This document shows, piece after piece, positions 36,776 through 60,426 of a stretch of DNA of 64,000 bases; within the stretch, counting starts at the first letter, position 1; every line of letters starts with the position of its first letter. The DNA is taken from NCBI GenBank assembly GCA_963665115.1, contig OY762007.1:1760001-1824000 (forward strand), written 5' to 3'. The position numbers and the translations under genes were made by a program. The notes beneath the pieces are model-generated. The model made no database searches and had not been told where the DNA came from. It was given only the letters and a program-made list of their open reading frames with translations. The DNA is from an uncultured Rivularia sp. (GTDB lineage Bacteria; Cyanobacteriota; Cyanobacteriia; Cyanobacteriales; Nostocaceae).

Positions 36776-37537
36776 TTAGGCCACATTATAATCAATATCA
36801 GTGGCATATGCAATTGGCTGATATTCATTACCACTAAATGGACTAAACCCAGATTTCCATTCTGCTGTTAAATTACACAGTAAACGTTGTTGTAAAGGTG
36901 TTGGTGCGGGATTTACTCTTTCAACTCGGACTAGAACGCTATTTAGATTTTCTAATAATACATGAAAATCATTATTAAGATATCGTGGACAATAACCTAC
37001 ATTATGATGATCTTTTGTACAAAGCATCAATACCTTAGAATCATAAGGGTTCTGTAACTCATGAGATAAATATAATAATTCCCCCGGTTCAGATTTAAGA
37101 ATCCTTTCAACAGAAGATAATGGAAAATATCTTAACCCACGTGCAAAAAATTTCATCTCATATAAACCGTTTTCATCTTGACTCGGACAAGGGAAAACTT
37201 CTAAAGTATCTGTAGCTTTTCTTCCACCACTACGAGCTAAAATATTAATAGGTTCGTCTTCCTTTTCAGGAATATTCAACCGCTCAATATAATTTTTATA
37301 ATCGGGACGAGAAGACCGCATAATCCGATTAGAGAATAATGGAAAAATTATTGTTGATTTATATACCTGATTGAACTCAGGAAAAGAATACAAAGCATTG
37401 AAACCGCATTGCTCTCTAGCCTGCAAAGCACCTCTTACATATGAAAATTGGTATTCTTCCCCATCATAAGTCAAGCGACCAATGGGAAACCATGTACGAG
37501 TATTTGGATCTTGCCAAGCCAGAAATAGGGTTTTCAT
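36776..37537 (-). CDS. HipA-N(HipS)-like + HIRAN domain protein
   Basis: LFLAWQ...IGRL...YQFSY...FPLFSNRI...RPDY N-domain; HIRAN-like FARGLRY...ELQNPYDSK...VGYCPRYL. Confidence 0.8.
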   Translation of the reverse strand: MKTLFLAWQDPNTRTWFPIGRLTYDGEEYQFSYVRGALQAREQCGFNALYSFPEFNQVYKSTIIFPLFSNRIMRSSRPDYKNYIERLNIPEKEDEPINILARSGGRKATDTLEVFPCPSQDENGLYEMKFFARGLRYFPLSSVERILKSEPGELLYLSHELQNPYDSKVLMLCTKDHHNVGYCPRYLNNDFHVLLENLNSVLVRVERVNPAPTPLQQRLLCNLTAEWKSGFSPFSGNEYQPIAYATDIDYNVA

Positions 37538-37656
37538 ATAGAAAAATTATTTAGACATAGCATATTAAAATATATATGTCAGTTATACAAGATATTGTAC
37601 TCCGATATCAGAACGCAACAATGTCATTGAGTAACACAACTAATGATTTACTGGTT

Positions 37657-38567
37657 TTATAAACTTTCACGCAGCTTGAGTAATCTACTTCGATTAAATT
37701 CCAGTATTCTCTGTGCAAATTCGATAGCGCTTGGTGATATCCGTTCTTGTGGAATGCGCTCAAATAGTTCTGAAGTATTTGCAGATGATATATTTGATAG
37801 ATAATCTAACCACAATAAAGCTGCATCTGGATAACCTTGTGCAGCTAGATAAAATGCATCAAATGTTTTAAGCGTCTTTTGATCGCCTGTTTCACCATAA
37901 AAAGCTGAAGTGGATCTACTTGCGTATGCTTCTACAGAAAAACCAGCATCTTTTGTTTTCAGTCTTTCTTTACGTTTTTATCCAATAACTCTCTACCAAG
38001 ACAAGAAGCATGGTCATAAGTCGGAGCTAAGTGAGTTTTATTAACTAAATTGACAAATGCCCAGTTTTCATGGTGTCTATCAGTATTACCAATCCAAGCA
38101 TCTAAAAGTAAATAACCGATAAAAGTTTCTACTGCATTACTTATACCTTCTGGTGAAGTCCAGCCTACAGGAAAATTAATAGAATCACCTGCAATAGCAT
38201 CTAATACAGAATTGATTGTGTGTTGAGAAGGATTTTTTATATCCCTGAGATAATCTGGAATTGTTCTAGATAAAATTTCATTACCAAAAGTAAGACTACC
38301 CCCTTTAGGCAAAAAATATGGTGAGATAATTCCTTTCTCTCCTTGAAATGTCGCCAATTCATATTTTGCGTGAGGTAAATGCAATAATTCGCATAACTCT
38401 GCCGCAATCTTTTCTGACCAATCTTCACCTGTATTAGGTCTAGCTTTTTTATATAAACAGTTACCAAAATTTTCATGGTCAAACCAAAACTTTTCTTTGG
38501 TTCCCATTTGTTCTTCTTCACCAGGTGCATCTAGCGAAATTTCAATAATAGAAAAATAATTAGCCAT
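37657..38567 (-). CDS. HipA/CtkA-like Ser/Thr kinase (frameshift ~37975, A-run)
   Basis: GTKEKFW, GEDWSEKIAAEL, DAWIGNTDRHHENW, APTYDHASCLG; the shifted frame continues ~105 aa to ...RLLKLRESL*. Confidence 0.85.
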
Positions 38568-53860: not shown

Positions 53861-54775
53861 TTGACGATGGAAAAATTACAAGATGCTATAACAAAGCCTG
53901 AATTTTTAATTTATTTTTTAATTTATTTAGGGACAATTATTGGCACTCAACTGCTCTACTCACTAGGTATTTACTTACGTCAGACTAGGACTAATAAACG
54001 ACGTTTTGCTCGCGGTTTACCAGAAACAATATTAATTCACCATGCGGAAAAACAATCCTCTCGTCGCATTGATGTTTTAATTCAAAACTTTCTCCTATTA
54101 GCTTCAGTTTTTATTGTTCCTTTTTTGTTAGTTTCTATCAGTTCTCTTGAGGATGCGGATAAAAGTAGCTTACTTCTCGTTTTTGTCCTTTTATTAATTT
54201 GGATTTTCGTTAACGGCACCGATCTGATTAAAGCTTTTCTTAATGGTCTAGCTTTCAAAACTATTACTGCTTTTACACAGCCTTTTCAAGTTGGAGATCG
54301 GGTTAATCTCAAAGGTATTAAAGGTAAAGTAGTTAAGTTTAATACTTTTTTTGTCGTCTTGATAACACCTGATGACGATCTTATTAGTATACCTACTCAT
54401 ACCCTTTGGAATGAAGTTTTAAACTCTGCTAATTCAGGCAATCGTTCTTCTTTGTGTGTGATAAATTTTTACCTAGCTTCTTTTAATACTGCCGAGCAAC
54501 GACAGGCTGCTGAAGATACTATTTGGGATGCGATACAATCTTCTGTTTATTACGAACCTTCTTTACCGATGCAAATTTATCTGAGCCAAACTCCTGATGC
54601 GATTAAATTGACGGCCAAAGCCTACGTTGCTTCTACTTATAACGAACCTCTTTTCAGCAGCGATGTTACTCGTGCTTTTTTAGATTTTGCTTCCAAAGCG
54701 AACATTGCTTTAACTCCAAGTACGTGGGAAGTAGGTGTAGAACATAATTATGTCGCAAAAAGTAGAAAAGCTTAA
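53861..54775 (+). CDS. MscS-family mechanosensitive channel domain protein
   Basis: TM helices then PFQVGDRV...GKVVKFNTF...LISIPT. Confidence 0.8.
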   Translation: MTMEKLQDAITKPEFLIYFLIYLGTIIGTQLLYSLGIYLRQTRTNKRRFARGLPETILIHHAEKQSSRRIDVLIQNFLLLASVFIVPFLLVSISSLEDADKSSLLLVFVLLLIWIFVNGTDLIKAFLNGLAFKTITAFTQPFQVGDRVNLKGIKGKVVKFNTFFVVLITPDDDLISIPTHTLWNEVLNSANSGNRSSLCVINFYLASFNTAEQRQAAEDTIWDAIQSSVYYEPSLPMQIYLSQTPDAIKLTAKAYVASTYNEPLFSSDVTRAFLDFASKANIALTPSTWEVGVEHNYVAKSRKA

Positions 54776-54973
54776 ATCACTTTCTAGTTATTCAGTTATG
54801 TAATCAGCAACTTAAAAGCAACTATTCAGGACTTAATAGAGCCCCCCTTAAAAAGGGGGGTTGGGGGGATCGAGAATGTCTGGAACACTATATTTCTCGT
54901 GATTGCTGCGTAAGTCCTAGTATTCTCTAAATTATTTTTATGAAGGCTATTAAGATTTTCACGAATTACGAAT

Positions 54974-57900
54974 TTACTTACAGAGTTCGCGATCGCTTTC
55001 TTTAGCATTGGATTCAAGATAATATGCAGCTTGTAGGCAAGCAGCCTTCACTAGTTGATTTAAATCTAATTGCAACTCTCGCAAATCCCACAGGATTAAC
55101 GTTCCGTCATCATAGCTAACTGAGGCAAGAGTTTTACCGTCAGGGCTAAAACTAACAATTTTGACTGGCTTATTTGGCTCATTGTCTGGGTTTGAGGTTT
55201 GCGGTTCTTTATCATCAAGGTTCGGGTTTAAGGTTTGGAATTCTTCACCATCAAGGTTCGGGTTTAAGGTTTGCAGTTCTTTACCATCAAGGTTCCAAAG
55301 TTTTACGGTACCGTCTTCACTCGCAGTTGCAATAATTTTTCCGTTGGGGCTAAAAGCGACGCTTAAAACATTATTATGCCCTTTGAGGGTTTTGAGTTCT
55401 TCGCCTTTCTTGTTCCAGAGTTTGATGGTATCTTTACTAGCAGAGGCAATGGTATTTTCGTTGGGACTCCAAGCTACACTGTTGAGTGCATATTTATGTC
55501 CGTCGAATGTTTTGAGGAATTGACCGTTTTTGTTCCATAGTTTAATAGTTTTATCATCGCTACCAGAAGCAATGGTTTTTCCATCGGGACTCCAAGCTAC
55601 ACTGTTGACATAAGCCTTATGTCCTTCGAGTGTTTTGAATACTTGACCATTTTTGTTCCATAGTTTGATAGTTTTATCTTCACTACCAGAGGCAATGGTA
55701 TTTCCGTCGGGACTCCAAGCTACACTCAAAACCGAATCATCATGTCCTTCGAGAGTTTTGAATACTTGACCATTTTTGTTCCAAAGTTTAATAGTATTAT
55801 CATCACTAGCAGAAGCAATGATCCTTCCGTCGGGACTAAAACTAACGCTTAAAACTTTATCCGTATGTTTGATTTTTGTTGGAATCGTTTTCCATCTCTC
55901 CTGCTTCAACCTCCAGATTTCGATGGTACCTTCCTTTGTACCAAAAGCAATGTTATTTCCTTTTGGGTTCCAAGCAACGCTGGAGAATAATGCTTGATTA
56001 TCTTCCTCAAGCTTTTTCAGTTTCTTATCCAATAAGCTCCAAAGCCTGACAGTATTATCCTCGCTAGCAGTAGCTATTTTCTTTCCGTCAGGGCTGAATT
56101 TGACACTGTTGATTCGACCGTCATGACCTTTAAGAGTTTGCAGAAGTTTTCCCCTTGTGTCCCAAATTTTAACAGTATTGTCGGCACTTGCAGAGGCAAT
56201 AGTATTCCCTTCAGGACTCCAAGCTATACTCAAGACGGAATCTTCATGTGCTCCAAGAGTTATGGGTTCCTCTTCTTCTATGTTCCAGAGTTTAACATTC
56301 TTATTACTAGCAAAGGCAATAGTCTTCCCGTCAGGACTAAAACTACCGCTATAAAATTTAATATCTTTGTCTTCTGGTATGGCTTTAACTACTTGACCAC
56401 TATTAACATTCCAAAGTTTGATTTTACCACCTTGAATAGCAGAAGCAATTGTCTTACCATCGGGGCTGAAGCTGAAACTTGTAATCTTTTCTCGATCGGC
56501 TGTAAGGAGTTTCAGAGGATTTCCTCGGCTATTCCAGAGTACAATCTTATTATCCGAATATCGAGAGGCTATAGTTTTTCTGCGGGCACTCCAAGTTACA
56601 TTCTTGACGGAACCATGCTTTCGGAGAGTTTTGGTTCTTTCTGACTGCAAGTTGAACATTCTAACAGTTTTTTGATCTTTAGTAAAGGCAATAGTTTTGC
56701 CGTCAGGACTAAACCTATAGAATTGAACGTTACTGCTGTTACTGGCTAGCTGTGTGGTTTTAATTACCTTGCCGTTAAGATTCCAACGTTTGATTGTACC
56801 ATCTTCGCTAGCTGAGACAATTTGCTTTCCGTCACGACTCCAAGCTACATCTTTGACTTTACCTTGATGTTTTAAACGATTTTGCTCTCTAAATCCATGT
56901 TCATAAACTGTTGCCTGTAAAGCTGTTAAAACTAAACTACGAGTTTCTTGATTTGGGCGCAATCCTTGTTTTAATATTTGTTCCCCTGCCCTAACGGCTT
57001 CAATTAGAGCATCAAACTTGAGATCTTCCTGATATAGCATCGAGGATAATCGAATTACAGAAGAAATCTGACGTTCAAGAGCTGCTTGGGCTTTTTTCTT
57101 CTGCTCTTCAGCTCTTTTCTTAGCGTTTTCAGCGTTTTCCTCAGCGTTTTCAGCGTCTTGCTGAGCTTTTAGGGCTGTTTCTTTAGCTTTTAGGGCTTTT
57201 TTCTTCTGCTCTTCAGCATTTTTCTGTGCTATTAGGGCAGTTTTCCTCTGAGATTCAGCCCTTCCCCTCTCCTGCCATGCCAATCCAGCAAGAACAACAG
57301 CAACCAAAAGTGCAATACTAACGGCACCAAGAAAAAACTTTTGTTTTTTAGCACTTTTTTTCTGTTCGGCTATCTTCTCTTGCTGTAAAAGCAGCATTCT
57401 TTCTTGTCGGCGTTTTTCTTCTTTTTGTGCTAGTTCAATCGCATTTTGACTGGCTTGAATAAACTCTTTCTGAAGAAAAGTTGTAGCAGGTTTTTTCTTT
57501 TTCTCTTCTGTCTCTTCCAACCAGTTTTGAGCAATTATTAAGTTACTACCCCGCAATAATAAATCATCATTTTTATTCTTCTGCTCCCACTCTAAAGCTC
57601 TTTGTAACCACTTACTATGATTTTGGACGTGTTCTCTGTCAGTTTCAATTGTTCTGAGCAATTGATTGAAGTTGGCATTAAAATCTTTGTTATTGCTGTT
57701 AAAATCAATCCATTGCACTTTGGCTAATTCTGGATGTAAATCGCTGGTATTTATTTCCCGATGCAGCACCGTCACACAGCGTTTATTCAACGAAGCTGCA
57801 TACTCCACCTCCGAATTACAGTAAGGTGAATTTACAGAACGCGGTGAGATAATAAATACAAAATTATCGGATATTTTAATTCCTCTATTAATTTCTTGTT

Positions 57901-59338
57901 GAAAATCACTCCCCGATGCTATACTTTCTTGATCGAACCAAGTCGTTTTTCCCTGTAGCTGTAAAGCATCATTCAACTTTCTCGCTAAGTCTGAGTCAGC
58001 ACGAGAGTAGGAAATGAACACATCGAGCGATTCTAATGGAGGTTGTTGCAGACTTGCGACAATAAATTCTGATTGTAATGGAATGGGTGGATGCTGCGTT
58101 CTTTTATGTGCCACCTCCAACCAAGTTTCGGCGCTGTGCAGGTTATATCCCCGTAGTAAAATACTAGGATTGTGATTTTGCTGTTGCCATTTCAAAGCTT
58201 TAGTTAACAGGATTTTATGCTCGTTGTAGTAAGCTGCATCCTCATATAAAATTTTGAGTAATTCGCTTTCATCGAGTTGATAATCAGCTTCGGTTAGATT
58301 ATCCGTCAAGTCAATATACTGTAAATCCTGCAATGCAGATGGTAATTCTATATTGTCAGTTGTTTGTACCAGCAGGGGAATAATCCGCTTATTGAATTCA
58401 ACAGCTAAATCCAATTCTTGCTGAGTGTAAGTGGATTTGACTGCATGAGGAGAAAGTAAATAAACCAAGTTATCGGCTTTTTCAATCCCCTGTTTAATAG
58501 AGTTGACAAAATCTTCCCCTGTTTTAATATCTATGGTATTTGTCCAAACCGTAATACCTTCTCGTCTTAAACTAGCGCGAATTTTCTCCATTGTGGCTCT
58601 ATCTTCCTCAGCATAGGAGAGAAATACCTGAGTCATCAAATTATTACCATTTTTGATGCTTTCGGTAATGAATTCGCAATGCAAATCGCTGGGAACACAA
58701 GGTGGTTGGGAGTCTTTGAAGCGAATTTTCAACCAAGCTTGAGCCTTTTCCTTTTCTTCCCCAGTTAACAAGTACCTTGTTTGCTTTTGATTCCTCTCCC
58801 ATTCCAAAGCTTTATTTAAAAACCTGGTATGCTGTTGTACATAATCTCTATGTAAATCAAGTAAATTAATTAAATCTGCGAGGGATTTGTCAAAATCATT
58901 TTTATCCTCTTGGAAATACACCCAGTTAATTTTACCGATTGTTGGGTGCATATTCACAAAAGATGTGTGTTTCCCTTGTGCAATGTATGCCTCCCAATCT
59001 TGTAAACTACCATTGGGATATCTAGAAAGCCAAGTTTCCCGATTAATTTCATCGACGTGTAATAAAGGAATAATCCGTTTATTACACTTAATCGCTAATT
59101 CTATTTCCTTAAGACAATAGGGGGAATTGATCGAATGGGGACTAATAACAAATAAGAAATGATCGGCTTTTTCGATACCATCATCAATTTGATTTTGAAA
59201 ATCAACACCCAAAGGGATATCGTTAAAATCGAACCAAACTTCCAACCCATGTTTGTTTAAACTAGATTGAAGTTTTAAGGCAAAATCTTTACTGTCAGCT
59301 CGTCCGTAGGAGATGAAAGCATCGAAAAATTTAGTCAT
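54974..59338 (-). CDS. Triple-TIR / TM / coiled-coil / WD40-repeat protein
   Basis: Three F(I/L)SY TIR domains, TM FFLGAVSIALLVAVVLAGLAW, ~14 WD40 repeats. Confidence 0.93.
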   Translation of the reverse strand: MTKFFDAFISYGRADSKDFALKLQSSLNKHGLEVWFDFNDIPLGVDFQNQIDDGIEKADHFLFVISPHSINSPYCLKEIELAIKCNKRIIPLLHVDEINRETWLSRYPNGSLQDWEAYIAQGKHTSFVNMHPTIGKINWVYFQEDKNDFDKSLADLINLLDLHRDYVQQHTRFLNKALEWERNQKQTRYLLTGEEKEKAQAWLKIRFKDSQPPCVPSDLHCEFITESIKNGNNLMTQVFLSYAEEDRATMEKIRASLRREGITVWTNTIDIKTGEDFVNSIKQGIEKADNLVYLLSPHAVKSTYTQQELDLAVEFNKRIIPLLVQTTDNIELPSALQDLQYIDLTDNLTEADYQLDESELLKILYEDAAYYNEHKILLTKALKWQQQNHNPSILLRGYNLHSAETWLEVAHKRTQHPPIPLQSEFIVASLQQPPLESLDVFISYSRADSDLARKLNDALQLQGKTTWFDQESIASGSDFQQEINRGIKISDNFVFIISPRSVNSPYCNSEVEYAASLNKRCVTVLHREINTSDLHPELAKVQWIDFNSNNKDFNANFNQLLRTIETDREHVQNHSKWLQRALEWEQKNKNDDLLLRGSNLIIAQNWLEETEEKKKKPATTFLQKEFIQASQNAIELAQKEEKRRQERMLLLQQEKIAEQKKSAKKQKFFLGAVSIALLVAVVLAGLAWQERGRAESQRKTALIAQKNAEEQKKKALKAKETALKAQQDAENAEENAENAKKRAEEQKKKAQAALERQISSVIRLSSMLYQEDLKFDALIEAVRAGEQILKQGLRPNQETRSLVLTALQATVYEHGFREQNRLKHQGKVKDVAWSRDGKQIVSASEDGTIKRWNLNGKVIKTTQLASNSSNVQFYRFSPDGKTIAFTKDQKTVRMFNLQSERTKTLRKHGSVKNVTWSARRKTIASRYSDNKIVLWNSRGNPLKLLTADREKITSFSFSPDGKTIASAIQGGKIKLWNVNSGQVVKAIPEDKDIKFYSGSFSPDGKTIAFASNKNVKLWNIEEEEPITLGAHEDSVLSIAWSPEGNTIASASADNTVKIWDTRGKLLQTLKGHDGRINSVKFSPDGKKIATASEDNTVRLWSLLDKKLKKLEEDNQALFSSVAWNPKGNNIAFGTKEGTIEIWRLKQERWKTIPTKIKHTDKVLSVSFSPDGRIIASASDDNTIKLWNKNGQVFKTLEGHDDSVLSVAWSPDGNTIASGSEDKTIKLWNKNGQVFKTLEGHKAYVNSVAWSPDGKTIASGSDDKTIKLWNKNGQFLKTFDGHKYALNSVAWSPNENTIASASKDTIKLWNKKGEELKTLKGHNNVLSVAFSPNGKIIATASEDGTVKLWNLDGKELQTLNPNLDGEEFQTLNPNLDDKEPQTSNPDNEPNKPVKIVSFSPDGKTLASVSYDDGTLILWDLRELQLDLNQLVKAACLQAAYYLESNAKESDRELCK

Positions 59339-59470
59339 TAACGGCTAGGCCTATTTTATGTAAAAATACTTAATTTTAAACTTATAAATTATAGTACAAC
59401 ATTTGAGTGATGCGTAGGCTACAAACCAGCGTTACTTCTTTCAATTTTTTCTCATAGCGTCACCCAACTT

Positions 59471-59597
59471 ACAATACTACTCGGTGAAGGGGAGATCCTC
59501 CCTAACCCTCCTTAAAAAGGAGGGAACTAAGCCCCCTTTTTAAGGGGGTTTGGGGGATCTAACGATTGCGTTCAATTCCTTAACCGAGCAGTATTGT
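59471..59597. repeat. Small inverted-repeat-bounded element containing CCCCCTTTTTAAGGGGG-type REP palindromes
   Basis: ACAATACTACTCGGTGAAGG / CCTTAACCGAGCAGTATTGT (18/20). A related REP palindrome lies at ~54841-54871. Confidence 0.65.
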
Positions 59598-59688
59598 CAC
59601 CCACCCTACAATGGAAGTTAAAACCCAGAGGATTCTATTTAAATAACTATTCCCCATTCCCCATTCCCCATTCCCTATTCCCCATTCC

Positions 59689-60426
59689 CTATTCCTCAAT
59701 TAAATACGACTTAATCAACTCAGTCGTACTCACAAAACTCTCTTTGAAGTCAAGTATTTGCACCAACCCCGAAGCAACTAATTCCTTCGCACCCTCATCT
59801 GTAGTTTTCCCATCTATGGCAGCACTCAGCGCATCGGCTAATCTTCCACTACCAGCTACAGCCAGCACCTTTCTATTTGCTTTATGGCTTTCCGATACAT
59901 CTTTTCTGGAAATTTCTCCACCGTTAACTAAAACTGCTATAGATGGCGCTCCCTTGGCTATTACAGTAGCTACATTTGCTAACCAAGGTGATTCATCACC
60001 CCAGTCACAGCCAGGAATAAACACAAAATGACTGTGGTTTGGTTCCAATGCTGACACTTCTTCTGGTGGGGGTTGATTGGGCAGAGCTACTTTTCCTACT
60101 GGAGTTACACCAATTAAGGCAAATTGCGCCGATATCTGGGCACGAGCTTGCCCAATCATCTGCATCACACCAAAATCTGTACCACCATCCACAACAGAGG
60201 CACCTAGAGTTTCAATTACCGGAGCCAGCACATTGACAAATAGCGATCGCAAACGGTTTAAATCGGTTTCGCTCATTTTACCTGCACCACCCAAAATTAC
60301 GAGGATGGGGCGCGGATTGTCAAAACCTAGTTCCGACATAGCCGATAATAAGTCCTTTTGAGACTCAACTCGAATCGCAGATGCCGTTAGTCCATTTGAC
60401 ATGGCAAGCCTAAAGGGTTTTTCCAT
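59689..60426 (-). CDS. Stand-alone SLOG protein, TRPM-like prokaryotic (LSDAT) family
   Basis: LVILGGAG, VVDGGTDFGVMQMIG, LIGVTP, LEPNHSHFVF, WGDES, VLVNGG, VAGSGRLAD. Confidence 0.85.
   Translation of the reverse strand: MEKPFRLAMSNGLTASAIRVESQKDLLSAMSELGFDNPRPILVILGGAGKMSETDLNRLRSLFVNVLAPVIETLGASVVDGGTDFGVMQMIGQARAQISAQFALIGVTPVGKVALPNQPPPEEVSALEPNHSHFVFIPGCDWGDESPWLANVATVIAKGAPSIAVLVNGGEISRKDVSESHKANRKVLAVAGSGRLADALSAAIDGKTTDEGAKELVASGLVQILDFKESFVSTTELIKSYLIEE

Follow-up and report, generated by a model that had tools for sequence, protein, structure and literature searches.

The closest described systems are the Thoeris systems of types I, III and VII. In the available parts of their descriptions, type I consists of the TIR protein ThsB and the SIR2-SLOG protein ThsA (10.1101/2021.01.06.425286), type III of several ThcB TIR proteins and a SLOG protein of the SMF/DprA type (review PMC13276650), and type VII of a ThsB TIR protein and the SLATT effector ThsH, with canonical cADPR made upon infection (bioRxiv 10.64898/2025.12.03.692087). 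In the same parts, detection of phage infection is the task of the TIR proteins, and a membrane-spanning TIR receptor is not mentioned. The definition of type I also includes 3'cADPR as the signal and anti-phage activity.

Among bacterial domains, the LSDAT clade of SLOG is most closely related to the domain with which TRPM channels bind ADPR. LSDAT-SLATT pairs have reportedly been described by Burroughs et al. in 2015. The available part of a second-hand account also gives this association (PMC13143021), as do the names of the Pfam families. In the literature searched, no ligand and no upstream enzyme was found reported for the LSDAT domain.

Here, a locus is described in which an LSDAT gene lies beside a gene for a large multi-TIR protein. 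It lies outside Thoeris types I, III and VII, and the pairing of the two genes is not due to chance.

Organization of the locus

The window, i.e., the whole stretch of DNA that was analyzed, comprises 64,000 nt of an uncultured Rivularia sp. (assembly GCA_963665115.1, contig OY762007.1, positions 1,760,001-1,824,000, forward strand; genome completeness 99.9%). The two co-directional genes proposed by an earlier sequence-only reading were recovered on the minus strand, separated by a gap of 350 bp: a stand-alone LSDAT (TRPM-type SLOG) gene of 245 aa (59689..60426) and a receptor gene of 1454 aa (54974..59338), which encodes three units of a TIR plus a helical module, a hydrophobic helix, a coiled-coil-like linker and WD40 repeats. 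The intergenic stretch (59339..59688), where relatives have a patatin gene of about 385 aa, contains heptamer repeats (about 59649-59697) and a palindromic insert of about 120 bp (59476-59595) that is flanked by 17-bp direct repeats; no patatin remnant was found in it.

A scan for promoters and terminators yielded signals at chance level, and no defence genes were found within about 15 kb of the pair in the window. Contigs from an RNA library of a related strain overlap parts of both genes, but transcription cannot be inferred from contigs. The convergent neighbor (53861..54775, plus strand) had been assigned to the MscS family, and a Pfam match to the MscS beta-domain agrees with this. The additional suggestion that it takes part in the system was not borne out: of 143 loci, only three, all from the closest sister species, have an MscS gene next to the pair. 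MscS was thus ruled out as the effector and the gene was judged incidental.

The LSDAT protein and the triple-TIR cassette

The 245-aa protein is indeed a SLOG of the TRPM type, as had been read from its sequence. It matched Pfam PF18171 (LSDAT_prok, 'SLOG in TRPM, prokaryote') with E 1.3e-64 and 217.5 bits at a curated cut-off of 25.4, and it is predicted to have the TRPM MHR1/2 fold. Profile searches returned LSDAT families and no other SLOG clade, PADLOC gave no match for this protein, and the genome contains no second LSDAT gene. The top PDB sequence match was human TRPM2 (E 1e-17), which was also the top Foldseek match (E 1.6e-15, TM 0.76) of the AF2 model (pLDDT 93.7). The residues M88, W142 and R195 align with TRPM2 M215, Y295 and R358, so that three of the four TRPM2 pocket residues tested by mutation are kept or conservatively replaced, while R302 is not retained. 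The protein is predicted to be a sensor of an ADP-ribose-type nucleotide with a largely conserved TRPM2-like ADPR pocket.

The receptor begins with the triple TIR-helical cassette (residues about 5-639; 57422..59326, minus strand). Here, the earlier reading was confirmed: Pfam detected three TIR_2 stretches, the motif of the helical module starts at residues 177, 381 and 581, and the motifs YCLKE, YTQQE and YCNSE, which start at residues 74, 304 and 506, provide a glutamate at the catalytic position of each TIR. These residues, Glu78 (59105-59107), Glu308 (58415-58417) and Glu510 (57809-57811), all on the minus strand, are retained in 62/62, 59/62 and 59/62 homologues, respectively. The earlier statement that there is no NTPase between the TIRs and the WD40s was confirmed as well: a Walker A motif is absent, also from the homologues (0/150), and residues 1-713 matched no NTPase family at E values up to 1.

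The AF2 model of the cassette (pLDDT 90.9, pTM 0.87) predicts that it folds as one compact unit. Foldseek retrieved single-TIR matches only, and Atlas scores for the helical module were below 0.8, so that no known fold was assigned to this module. The number of TIRs per chain varies from three to seven among the homologues. PADLOC found ThsB-like matches, and the top PDB sequence matches include the NAD-depleting TIRs of Cat1 and SARM1. The three TIR domains are likely to be NAD-cleaving enzymes.

Predicted topology and exchangeable sensors

The proposed membrane helix was found as a single strongly hydrophobic 19-mer at residues 668-686 (57281..57337, minus strand; Kyte-Doolittle mean 2.71 versus 0.87 for the next best segment), which is preceded by a lysine-rich stretch. 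It is retained in 54 of 57 complete homologues, and the positive charge is greater before than after the helix in 52 of these 54. In a larger set it was present in 133/141. The same helical module and hydrophobic helix also follow STAND NTPases in the Rivularia genome; therefore, such a helix is typical of the family and its presence is no proof of membrane crossing.

Behind the helix follows the predicted extracytoplasmic sensor, a coiled-coil-like stalk with WD40 propellers (55079..57271, minus strand). A coiled coil and about 14 WD40 repeats had been expected; WD40 repeats are present and a coiled-coil-like linker was recognized in the sequence, while the pattern search yielded 13 repeats, with about 14 being plausible. 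In other proteins the same cassette and helix bear CHASE2, Cache or WG tails instead. Cache is an established extracytoplasmic sensor. The same is true for CHASE2, according to the available part of PMC8195603, and all 15 CHASE2-tailed homologues have the hydrophobic helix. The exchange of tails at this position therefore supports an outward-facing, swappable sensor and, together with the conserved helix and the positive-inside charge, speaks for the topology that had been proposed. The receptor is thus predicted to be oriented N-in, C-out.

Recurrence of the pair and a third component, the effector slot

Whether SLOG-TIR linkage recurs in other genomes had been set beforehand as a test, and the answer was positive across cyanobacteria. 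In a sample of 400 cyanobacterial genomes, in which relatives are not independent, LSDAT was found in 22 of 24 receptor-positive genomes versus 8 of 376 receptor-negative genomes. Furthermore, a receptor gene lies within about 8 kb of 9 of the 30 LSDAT genes, while about 0.13 would be expected. Also in groups with a patchy distribution the SLOG and the receptor occur in the same genomes (2/9 in genus g7, 1/19 in g24, 1/4 in family f12). The initial caveat that TIR-WD40 genes are common and that adjacency could be chance did not survive, as linkage is far above chance and, besides the receptor, the genome yielded no other full TIR_2 protein.

The linkage is not universal. A SLOG gene is adjacent in 16/72 metagenome loci and in 9/32 long ones, and thus most receptor genes have no adjoining SLOG. 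Eight of the 30 LSDAT genomes have no receptor match, and the five of these that were tested carry unrelated TIRs only. Six LSDAT loci of Chloroflexota showed no TIR in their vicinity.

The sequence-only reading missed a third component, a dedicated effector slot that is occupied by DUF4231/SLATT or by patatin and has been lost in this genome. Most other LSDAT genomes encode a SLATT-type (DUF4231) membrane protein, which is often fused to the SLOG: a strong DUF4231 match was obtained in 27 of the 30 LSDAT genomes, DUF4231 lies within about 7 kb of LSDAT in 21/30 loci, and among 69 longer LSDAT homologues 65 have DUF4231 as a fusion partner. DUF4231 itself exceeds the cut-off of the SLATT_1 model. 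In one locus (L180) an LSDAT-DUF4231 fusion is encoded directly upstream of a TIR-helical-WD40 gene, and in another (L110) a SLATT3-SLATT1 gene occupies the slot.

The alternative occupant is a CapV-like patatin gene, which lies between SLOG and receptor in eleven relatives. The only two LSDAT genomes with no DUF4231 match, G026 and G366, have the gene order SLOG-patatin-3xTIR-WD40. The GGGIRG, GTSTG and DG motifs of the relatives' patatin are intact, but its score with NF041079 (CBASS CapV phospholipase) was 126 bits and thus under the cut-off of 200. It is flanked by SLOG and TIR genes, with no CD-NTase gene directly beside it. A SLOG-patatin fusion was not present among the 69 longer LSDAT homologues.

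In this genome and in three sister species the patatin has been lost and no SLATT is present, while SLOG and receptor have been kept. A search of the Rivularia genome for an effector in trans, in which the positive controls were detected, revealed no DUF4231, SLATT_1, TPR-S or cognate patatin; a patatin paralogue with 36-38% (C1:2.817 Mb) is split in two frames. Because none of these is present, the effector step cannot run as it does in relatives.

Selection on the remaining pair

Comparison of the four patatin-less sister species showed that SLOG and receptor are under purifying selection despite the loss of the patatin. For the cassette dN/dS was 0.14-0.20 (P < 1e-7 against neutrality), and for the SLOG pN/pS was 0.16-0.41, computed from codon 13 (P 0.007-0.05 in five pairs). 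An apparent rise of the SLOG value to 0.5-0.6 proved spurious: in L003 and L004, two of the three sister species, a one-base insertion near codon 12 puts the N-terminus out of frame. The WD40 side of the receptor is fast-evolving, with dN/dS of 0.93-1.95 for the transmembrane helix and stalk and of 0.43-0.86 for the WD40 repeats, the latter possibly inflated by repeat misalignment.

Proposed mechanism and alternative explanations

We favor, at about even probability, the explanation that the two genes encode receptor and sensor of a Thoeris-like module that recurs in cyanobacteria, would use an ADP-ribose-type messenger and has lost its effector gene here. The receptor would span the inner membrane once, with the three TIRs inside and the WD40 sensor outside. 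An outside ligand, e.g., a cue from a phage or from the cell envelope, would bring the pre-packed cassettes together or change their orientation without an NTPase switch. The TIRs, with their conserved glutamates, would then cleave NAD+, and their product would be captured by the free LSDAT protein, whose TRPM2-like pocket is largely conserved. In the ancestral module, in which SLOG and effector are linked or fused, LSDAT would then activate the effector, either a membrane pore of the SLATT/DUF4231 type or a lipase of the CapV-like patatin type, leading to membrane damage. The empty slot together with purifying selection indicates that in this genome the circuit would most likely end in NAD+ loss through the TIRs' own activity or in a further partner.

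In four species just this pair has been kept under purifying selection, and no effector was found; this would also fit the rather unlikely alternative that the TIRs are the killing effector, acting by NAD+ depletion, while the SLOG is a brake that binds or hydrolyses the TIR product and sets the threshold, with SLATT and patatin being optional. A chain with three to seven TIRs would be suited to turning over NAD+ in bulk, the matches to Cat1 and SARM1 point in the same direction, and some SLOG domains are N-glycosidases (available part of PMC9503650). However, the overwhelming fusion to, or position beside, SLATT/DUF4231 is a sensor-effector pattern, and Nostoc-like genomes that lack the receptor still have LSDAT-DUF4231.

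A role of the circuit in envelope or cell-contact signalling of filamentous cyanobacteria instead of anti-phage defence is unlikely; it would be compatible with the chemistry of the favored explanation. The presence in only 12 of 24 genomes of the genus, the fast-evolving sensor and tandem receptor arrays (L188) are traits of conflict systems, and the effectors are known from CBASS and Thoeris. On the other hand, the loci lie among housekeeping genes and not in defence islands, CHASE2 versions occur in TPS/ShlB/CHAT/DUF928 clusters, and some DUF4231 partners bear lysozyme, GH19 or C39 peptidase domains.

Also unlikely is a helix that does not cross the membrane, in which case the protein would be a cytoplasmic or tethered NLR derivative minus the STAND NTPase, with WD40 repeats that sense phage proteins inside the cell. 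The hydrophobicity of the helix, the charge bias, and the CHASE2 and Cache tails at the same position argue against it, although the helical module and the hydrophobic helix derive from STAND-type receptors, the receptor has no signal peptide, the helix is missing in 8/141 homologues, which have long tails, and one homologue ends with an FHA domain, which is normally cytoplasmic.

That the pair is a decaying remnant after effector loss appears quite improbable. The absence of effector genes, the one-base insertion in two sister species and broken copies in other relatives (half a SLOG in L035, a truncated pair in L184) speak for it, but changes among the four species are mostly synonymous and both ORFs are intact in the window; for the receptor, decay was already disfavored. 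Finally, chance adjacency or a SLOG that gates the MscS channel is highly improbable, as the adjacent, convergent MscS gene is rarely found at other loci, linkage and co-occurrence are far above chance, and the genome contains only one such TIR gene.

The favored module may, as a tentative extension, represent a cyanobacterial family of true Toll-like receptors: single-pass, NTPase-free, with three TIRs in one chain and swappable sensors, and with a free TRPM2-type SLOG that reads their messenger and docks onto exchangeable effectors. The outer sensors would comprise WD40, CHASE2, Cache, WG and FGE-lectin. If true, bacteria would have a transmembrane form of TIR second-messenger signalling as well as a split counterpart of the ADPR-gated TRPM2, and the effector-less pair would reveal a second job of the SLOG as regulator of the receptor. 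With this module, a candidate enzyme, two candidate effectors and a soluble sensor of 245 aa are at hand; therefore, it becomes possible to test directly how TRPM2 nucleotide gating originated, and the natural effector deletion is a built-in control.

Comparison with known systems

As in type I Thoeris, a TIR with catalytic glutamate lies beside a SLOG predicted to read an ADPR-type signal, but this SLOG is of the LSDAT/TRPM type instead of STALD and is free-standing without SIR2 fusion. The combination of multiple TIR domains with a SLOG protein resembles type III, with the differences that LSDAT is another SLOG clade and that a single chain contains all TIRs together with a membrane helix; the score with the ThcB4 model was 102 bits at a cut-off of 220. 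Relatives' loci mostly pair a TIR enzyme with a SLATT membrane effector, like type VII. However, the TIRs here belong to a large receptor, predicted to be transmembrane, which has three of them and an outer sensor that can be swapped. In addition, there is a separate SLOG of the LSDAT clade, and the slot may hold a patatin in relatives; DUF4231/SLATT_1 is absent from this genome, while relatives correspond loosely to type VII in this respect. The patatin itself differs from CBASS CapV in its sub-threshold score and in being flanked by SLOG and TIR instead of CD-NTase.

The SLOG family and the SLATT association are shared with the LSDAT-SLATT pairs of Burroughs et al. 2015, as far as the available accounts describe them. 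In the literature covered, which did not include that paper and its supplement, no link of LSDAT to NTPase-free TIR transmembrane receptors or to patatin was found. The TRPM2 MHR1/2 ADPR-binding domain is the closest solved homologue by sequence and fold, but the bacterial version lacks the TRP channel domain and occurs either apart from a 2-TM SLATT unit or in fusion with it.

With TIR-STAND-WD40 receptors of the nSTAND1/Avs type the receptor shares the post-NTPase helical module, the hydrophobic helix and the WD40 tail, but, in contrast to these NLR-like proteins, it and its homologues have no central STAND NTPase. A Toll-like receptor consists of an LRR ectodomain with a C-terminal TIR. The predicted arrangement of a sensor outside, a single helix and TIRs inside is the same as in the animal receptors; unlike there, the TIRs are N-terminal and predicted to be enzymes instead of adaptors, the C-terminal domain is WD40 instead of LRR, and the predicted N-in/C-out polarity is the reverse. 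Sensing outside the cytoplasm with a TIR messenger inside would extend bacterial TIR signalling to the Toll-like plan.

The two genes and their genome

The SLOG gene (59689..60426, minus strand) and the neighbouring gene for a triple-TIR/WD40 receptor (54974..59338, minus strand) were both recovered upon checking the sequence of the window, in agreement with the sequence-only reading, and this observation is real. In a domain search the 245-aa upstream protein was identified as LSDAT_prok, a TRPM-type SLOG (E 1.3e-64). The 1454-aa receptor comprises three units of a TIR_2 domain and a helical-module copy, followed by a hydrophobic 19-mer, a charged linker and WD40 repeats. The 19-mer (residues 668-686) has a mean hydropathy of 2.71 versus 0.87 for the runner-up, and a Walker A motif was not found in the receptor by motif and domain search. 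The source genome is a single, 99.9% complete contig in which this pair accounts for the only LSDAT gene and the only full TIR_2 protein. The nearest loci bearing names in a homologue search belong to Rivularia-like cyanobacteria.

A third gene and its loss

In 11 related loci (L005-L014 and L035) a gene of 378-408 aa is located directly behind the SLOG gene and ahead of the receptor gene. It encodes a patatin with intact catalytic motifs (four were domain-scanned, all 11 aligned), which resembles CBASS CapV with a score under the curated cut-off. The gene is cleanly missing from this slot in the window and in three sister species (L001, L003, L004), and whole-genome searches did not find the module's patatin anywhere in these four genomes. 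A rapidly built tree of 71 cassettes (the three TIR-helical units) places the four patatin-less species in a single clade nested among patatin-bearing loci, and thus the absence represents a loss. The source genome also carries a paralogue 36-38% identical to the module's patatin, which is broken across two reading frames (L175, G000:C1:2817088-2818327). A palindromic element of ~120 bp, flanked by 17-bp direct repeats, lies between the SLOG and TIR genes (59476-59595); it is present in L001 and L003, not in L004, and a related palindrome is found at ~54840-54930.

At other loci SLATT-type membrane proteins occupy this slot. The survey took an even sample of 400 further cyanobacterial genomes, 30 of which have a strong LSDAT match (E <=1e-27; three weak matches were left out). 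A strong DUF4231 match was found in 27 of these 30 genomes versus 3 of the 370 others, and within ~7 kb of SLOG at 21 of the 30 loci; the two LSDAT genomes without any DUF4231 match are the two that carry SLOG-patatin-receptor. Longer LSDAT homologues are fused to DUF4231 in 65/69 cases and to patatin in 0/69. Against SLATT_1, DUF4231 scores above the cut-off. LSDAT was reportedly defined, and its SLATT link reported, by Burroughs in 2015. At L180 a SLOG-DUF4231 fusion lies immediately upstream of a TIR-helical-WD40 gene, at L183 SLOG, DUF4231 and a triple-TIR receptor are consecutive, and at L110 the slot is occupied by a SLATT3-SLATT1 gene. A search that detected control genomes revealed no DUF4231, SLATT_1 or TPR-S in the source genome.

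Several receptor-adjacent DUF4231/SLATT proteins have C-terminal C39 peptidase and GH19, or phage-lysozyme, domains (L100:2846-5044, L122:3745-6165, L112:11181-12578), which suggests putative wall-degrading effectors. TPR-S (TPR sensor) proteins, one of them fused to SLATT_1, recurrently adjoin LSDAT or the receptor (L074:7532-9745, L181:7330-10527, L187:4720-6942, L039:6337-7956) and may be an additional effector type. At L188 (G388:C48:1-20000) three triple-TIR-WD40 receptors in tandem are followed by two DUF4231 genes.

The SLOG sensor and a possible relay

Human TRPM2 is the best solved relative of the SLOG by sequence (E 1e-17) and the best fold match of its predicted structure (TM 0.76). 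TRPM2 residues M215, Y295 and R358 affect ADPR binding, according to 10.64898/2026.03.30.715250. They align with SLOG M88, W142 and R195 (positions counted by hand on the alignment), of which M88 is conserved to at least 90% and the others are invariant in 33 sequences; TRPM2 R302 is not conserved.

Beyond the demonstrated anatomy, linkage, effector slot, effector loss and selection pattern, a relay has about even chances of being correct. A ligand outside the cell would be sensed by the outer part of the receptor, the TIRs would be activated and produce a messenger, and the SLOG would bind it and activate a membrane-damaging effector, putatively in defence. That the TIRs are themselves the effector and the SLOG a brake is rather unlikely. 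Signalling outside defence, which overlaps with the other readings, we consider unlikely. A defence island was not seen in the window, the nearest strong PADLOC matches being ~16 kb off. Of two minus-strand ORFs at 36779-38567, one matches the PADLOC candidate defence system PDC-M03B (E 7e-93); the other matches PDC-M03A (E 6e-85), spans only ~200 of 305 model positions and may be truncated.

Receptor architecture and topology

The catalytic-position Glu is kept in 62/62, 59/62 and 59/62 triple-TIR homologues for TIR1, TIR2 and TIR3, respectively. AlphaFold2 predicted residues 1-640 as one confident folded unit (pLDDT 90.9, pTM 0.87), and PDB matches to the cassette were to single TIRs alone. 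The receptor family comprises 596 clusters at E <=1e-30. Proteins among the best 150 of these have two to seven TIRs and lack a Walker A motif throughout; their tails are WD40 (100), CHASE2 (15), short (9) or other (26). Scanning of 20 of the 26 other tails revealed Cache (1), CHASE2 (1), WG repeats (2), FGE-sulfatase (3, one also with WG), TPR (1), pentapeptide plus FHA (1) and no family (12). The receptor probably derived from the STAND-NTPase class, since STAND NTPases of the source genome are likewise followed by this helical module and hydrophobic helix.

The helix is retained in 54/57 complete local homologues, with greater positive charge before than after it in 52 of the 54, and in 133 of 141 long-tailed representatives among the best 150 clusters. 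CHASE2 begins right behind the helix at the equivalent position (residue 648 in L089), and in the 71-cassette tree CHASE2-tailed receptors branch within WD40-tailed ones. These features favour TIRs inside and the sensor outside, although the presence of the helix behind STAND NTPases calls for caution. A cytoplasmic receptor is distinctly improbable; the homologue with the FHA tail speaks for it, as it does not fit an outer tail. Triple-TIR-CHASE2 genes adjoin DUF928, and at several loci also TPS, ShlB and CHAT-TPR (L089, L186, L195 and related loci), as though a TIR had taken over from the cluster's customary output domain.

Selection following loss of the effector

In comparisons among the four species without the patatin, cassette dN/dS is 0.14-0.20, similar to the 0.11-0.20 of patatin-bearing pairs. 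The values are 0.93-1.95 for helix and stalk and 0.43-0.86 for the WD40 part, a pattern of a conserved predicted enzyme whose sensor diversifies. Computed from codon 13 onward, SLOG pN/pS is 0.16-0.41, with purifying selection at binomial P 0.007-0.05 in five pairs with small counts. That the pair is decaying after effector loss is therefore very improbable. The same additional G occurs near SLOG codon 12 in L003 and L004 (8001-8040 in both loci), with an in-frame ATG just downstream; this may reflect incipient decay or a restart that is tolerated.

Recurrence of the pairing

The TIR-helical receptor family (E <=1e-15) was found in 24 of the 400 genomes. LSDAT is present in 22 of these versus 8 of the 376 remaining genomes, related genomes not being independent; the two receptor genomes without LSDAT are assemblies in 300 and 450 contigs. 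In patchy groups both occur in identical genomes (2/9 of genus g7, 1/19 of genus g24, 1/4 of family f12). A receptor gene lies within ~8 kb of LSDAT in 9 of 30 cases (two of them at 7.0 and 7.4 kb), versus ~0.13 expected by chance from gene counts and genome sizes. The suspected recurrent SLOG-TIR linkage was thus borne out, and adjacency by chance, or with the MscS gene as partner, is next to negligible. The part in the system once suggested for MscS was not upheld, as it adjoins the pair in just 3/143 loci, all from sister species.

A strict operon is argued against, because SLOG is visible at 16/72 metagenome receptor loci (9/32 among those of at least 9 kb), the TIRs of five LSDAT-positive genomes tested are all unrelated, and no TIR lies close to LSDAT at any of six Chloroflexota loci. 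Unrelated TIR genes lie within a few kb of LSDAT at two of nine non-cyanobacterial loci. In a Methylococcaceae genome a RyR-domain protein gene lies directly behind LSDAT (L029:3118-4941).

Comparison with known systems

No description of this module was found in the literature, judged by titles and abstract openings, and none of DUF4231 together with TIR. The comparison drew on PMC13143021, PMC9503650, PMC8195603, 10.1101/2021.01.06.425286, PMC10907252, PMC13276650 and PMC13069673. The available main text of 10.64898/2025.12.03.692087, which describes type VII Thoeris as TIR plus SLATT with cADPR, does not mention WD40, patatin or DUF4231; it counts phospholipases among 29 putative effector types, and therefore its Table S1 may bear on novelty. 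By their membership features the pair falls outside Thoeris types I, III and VII, STAND receptors and TLRs. In its way of working it resembles Thoeris, the closest being type VII (TIR and SLATT, cADPR) and type I (TIR and SLOG).
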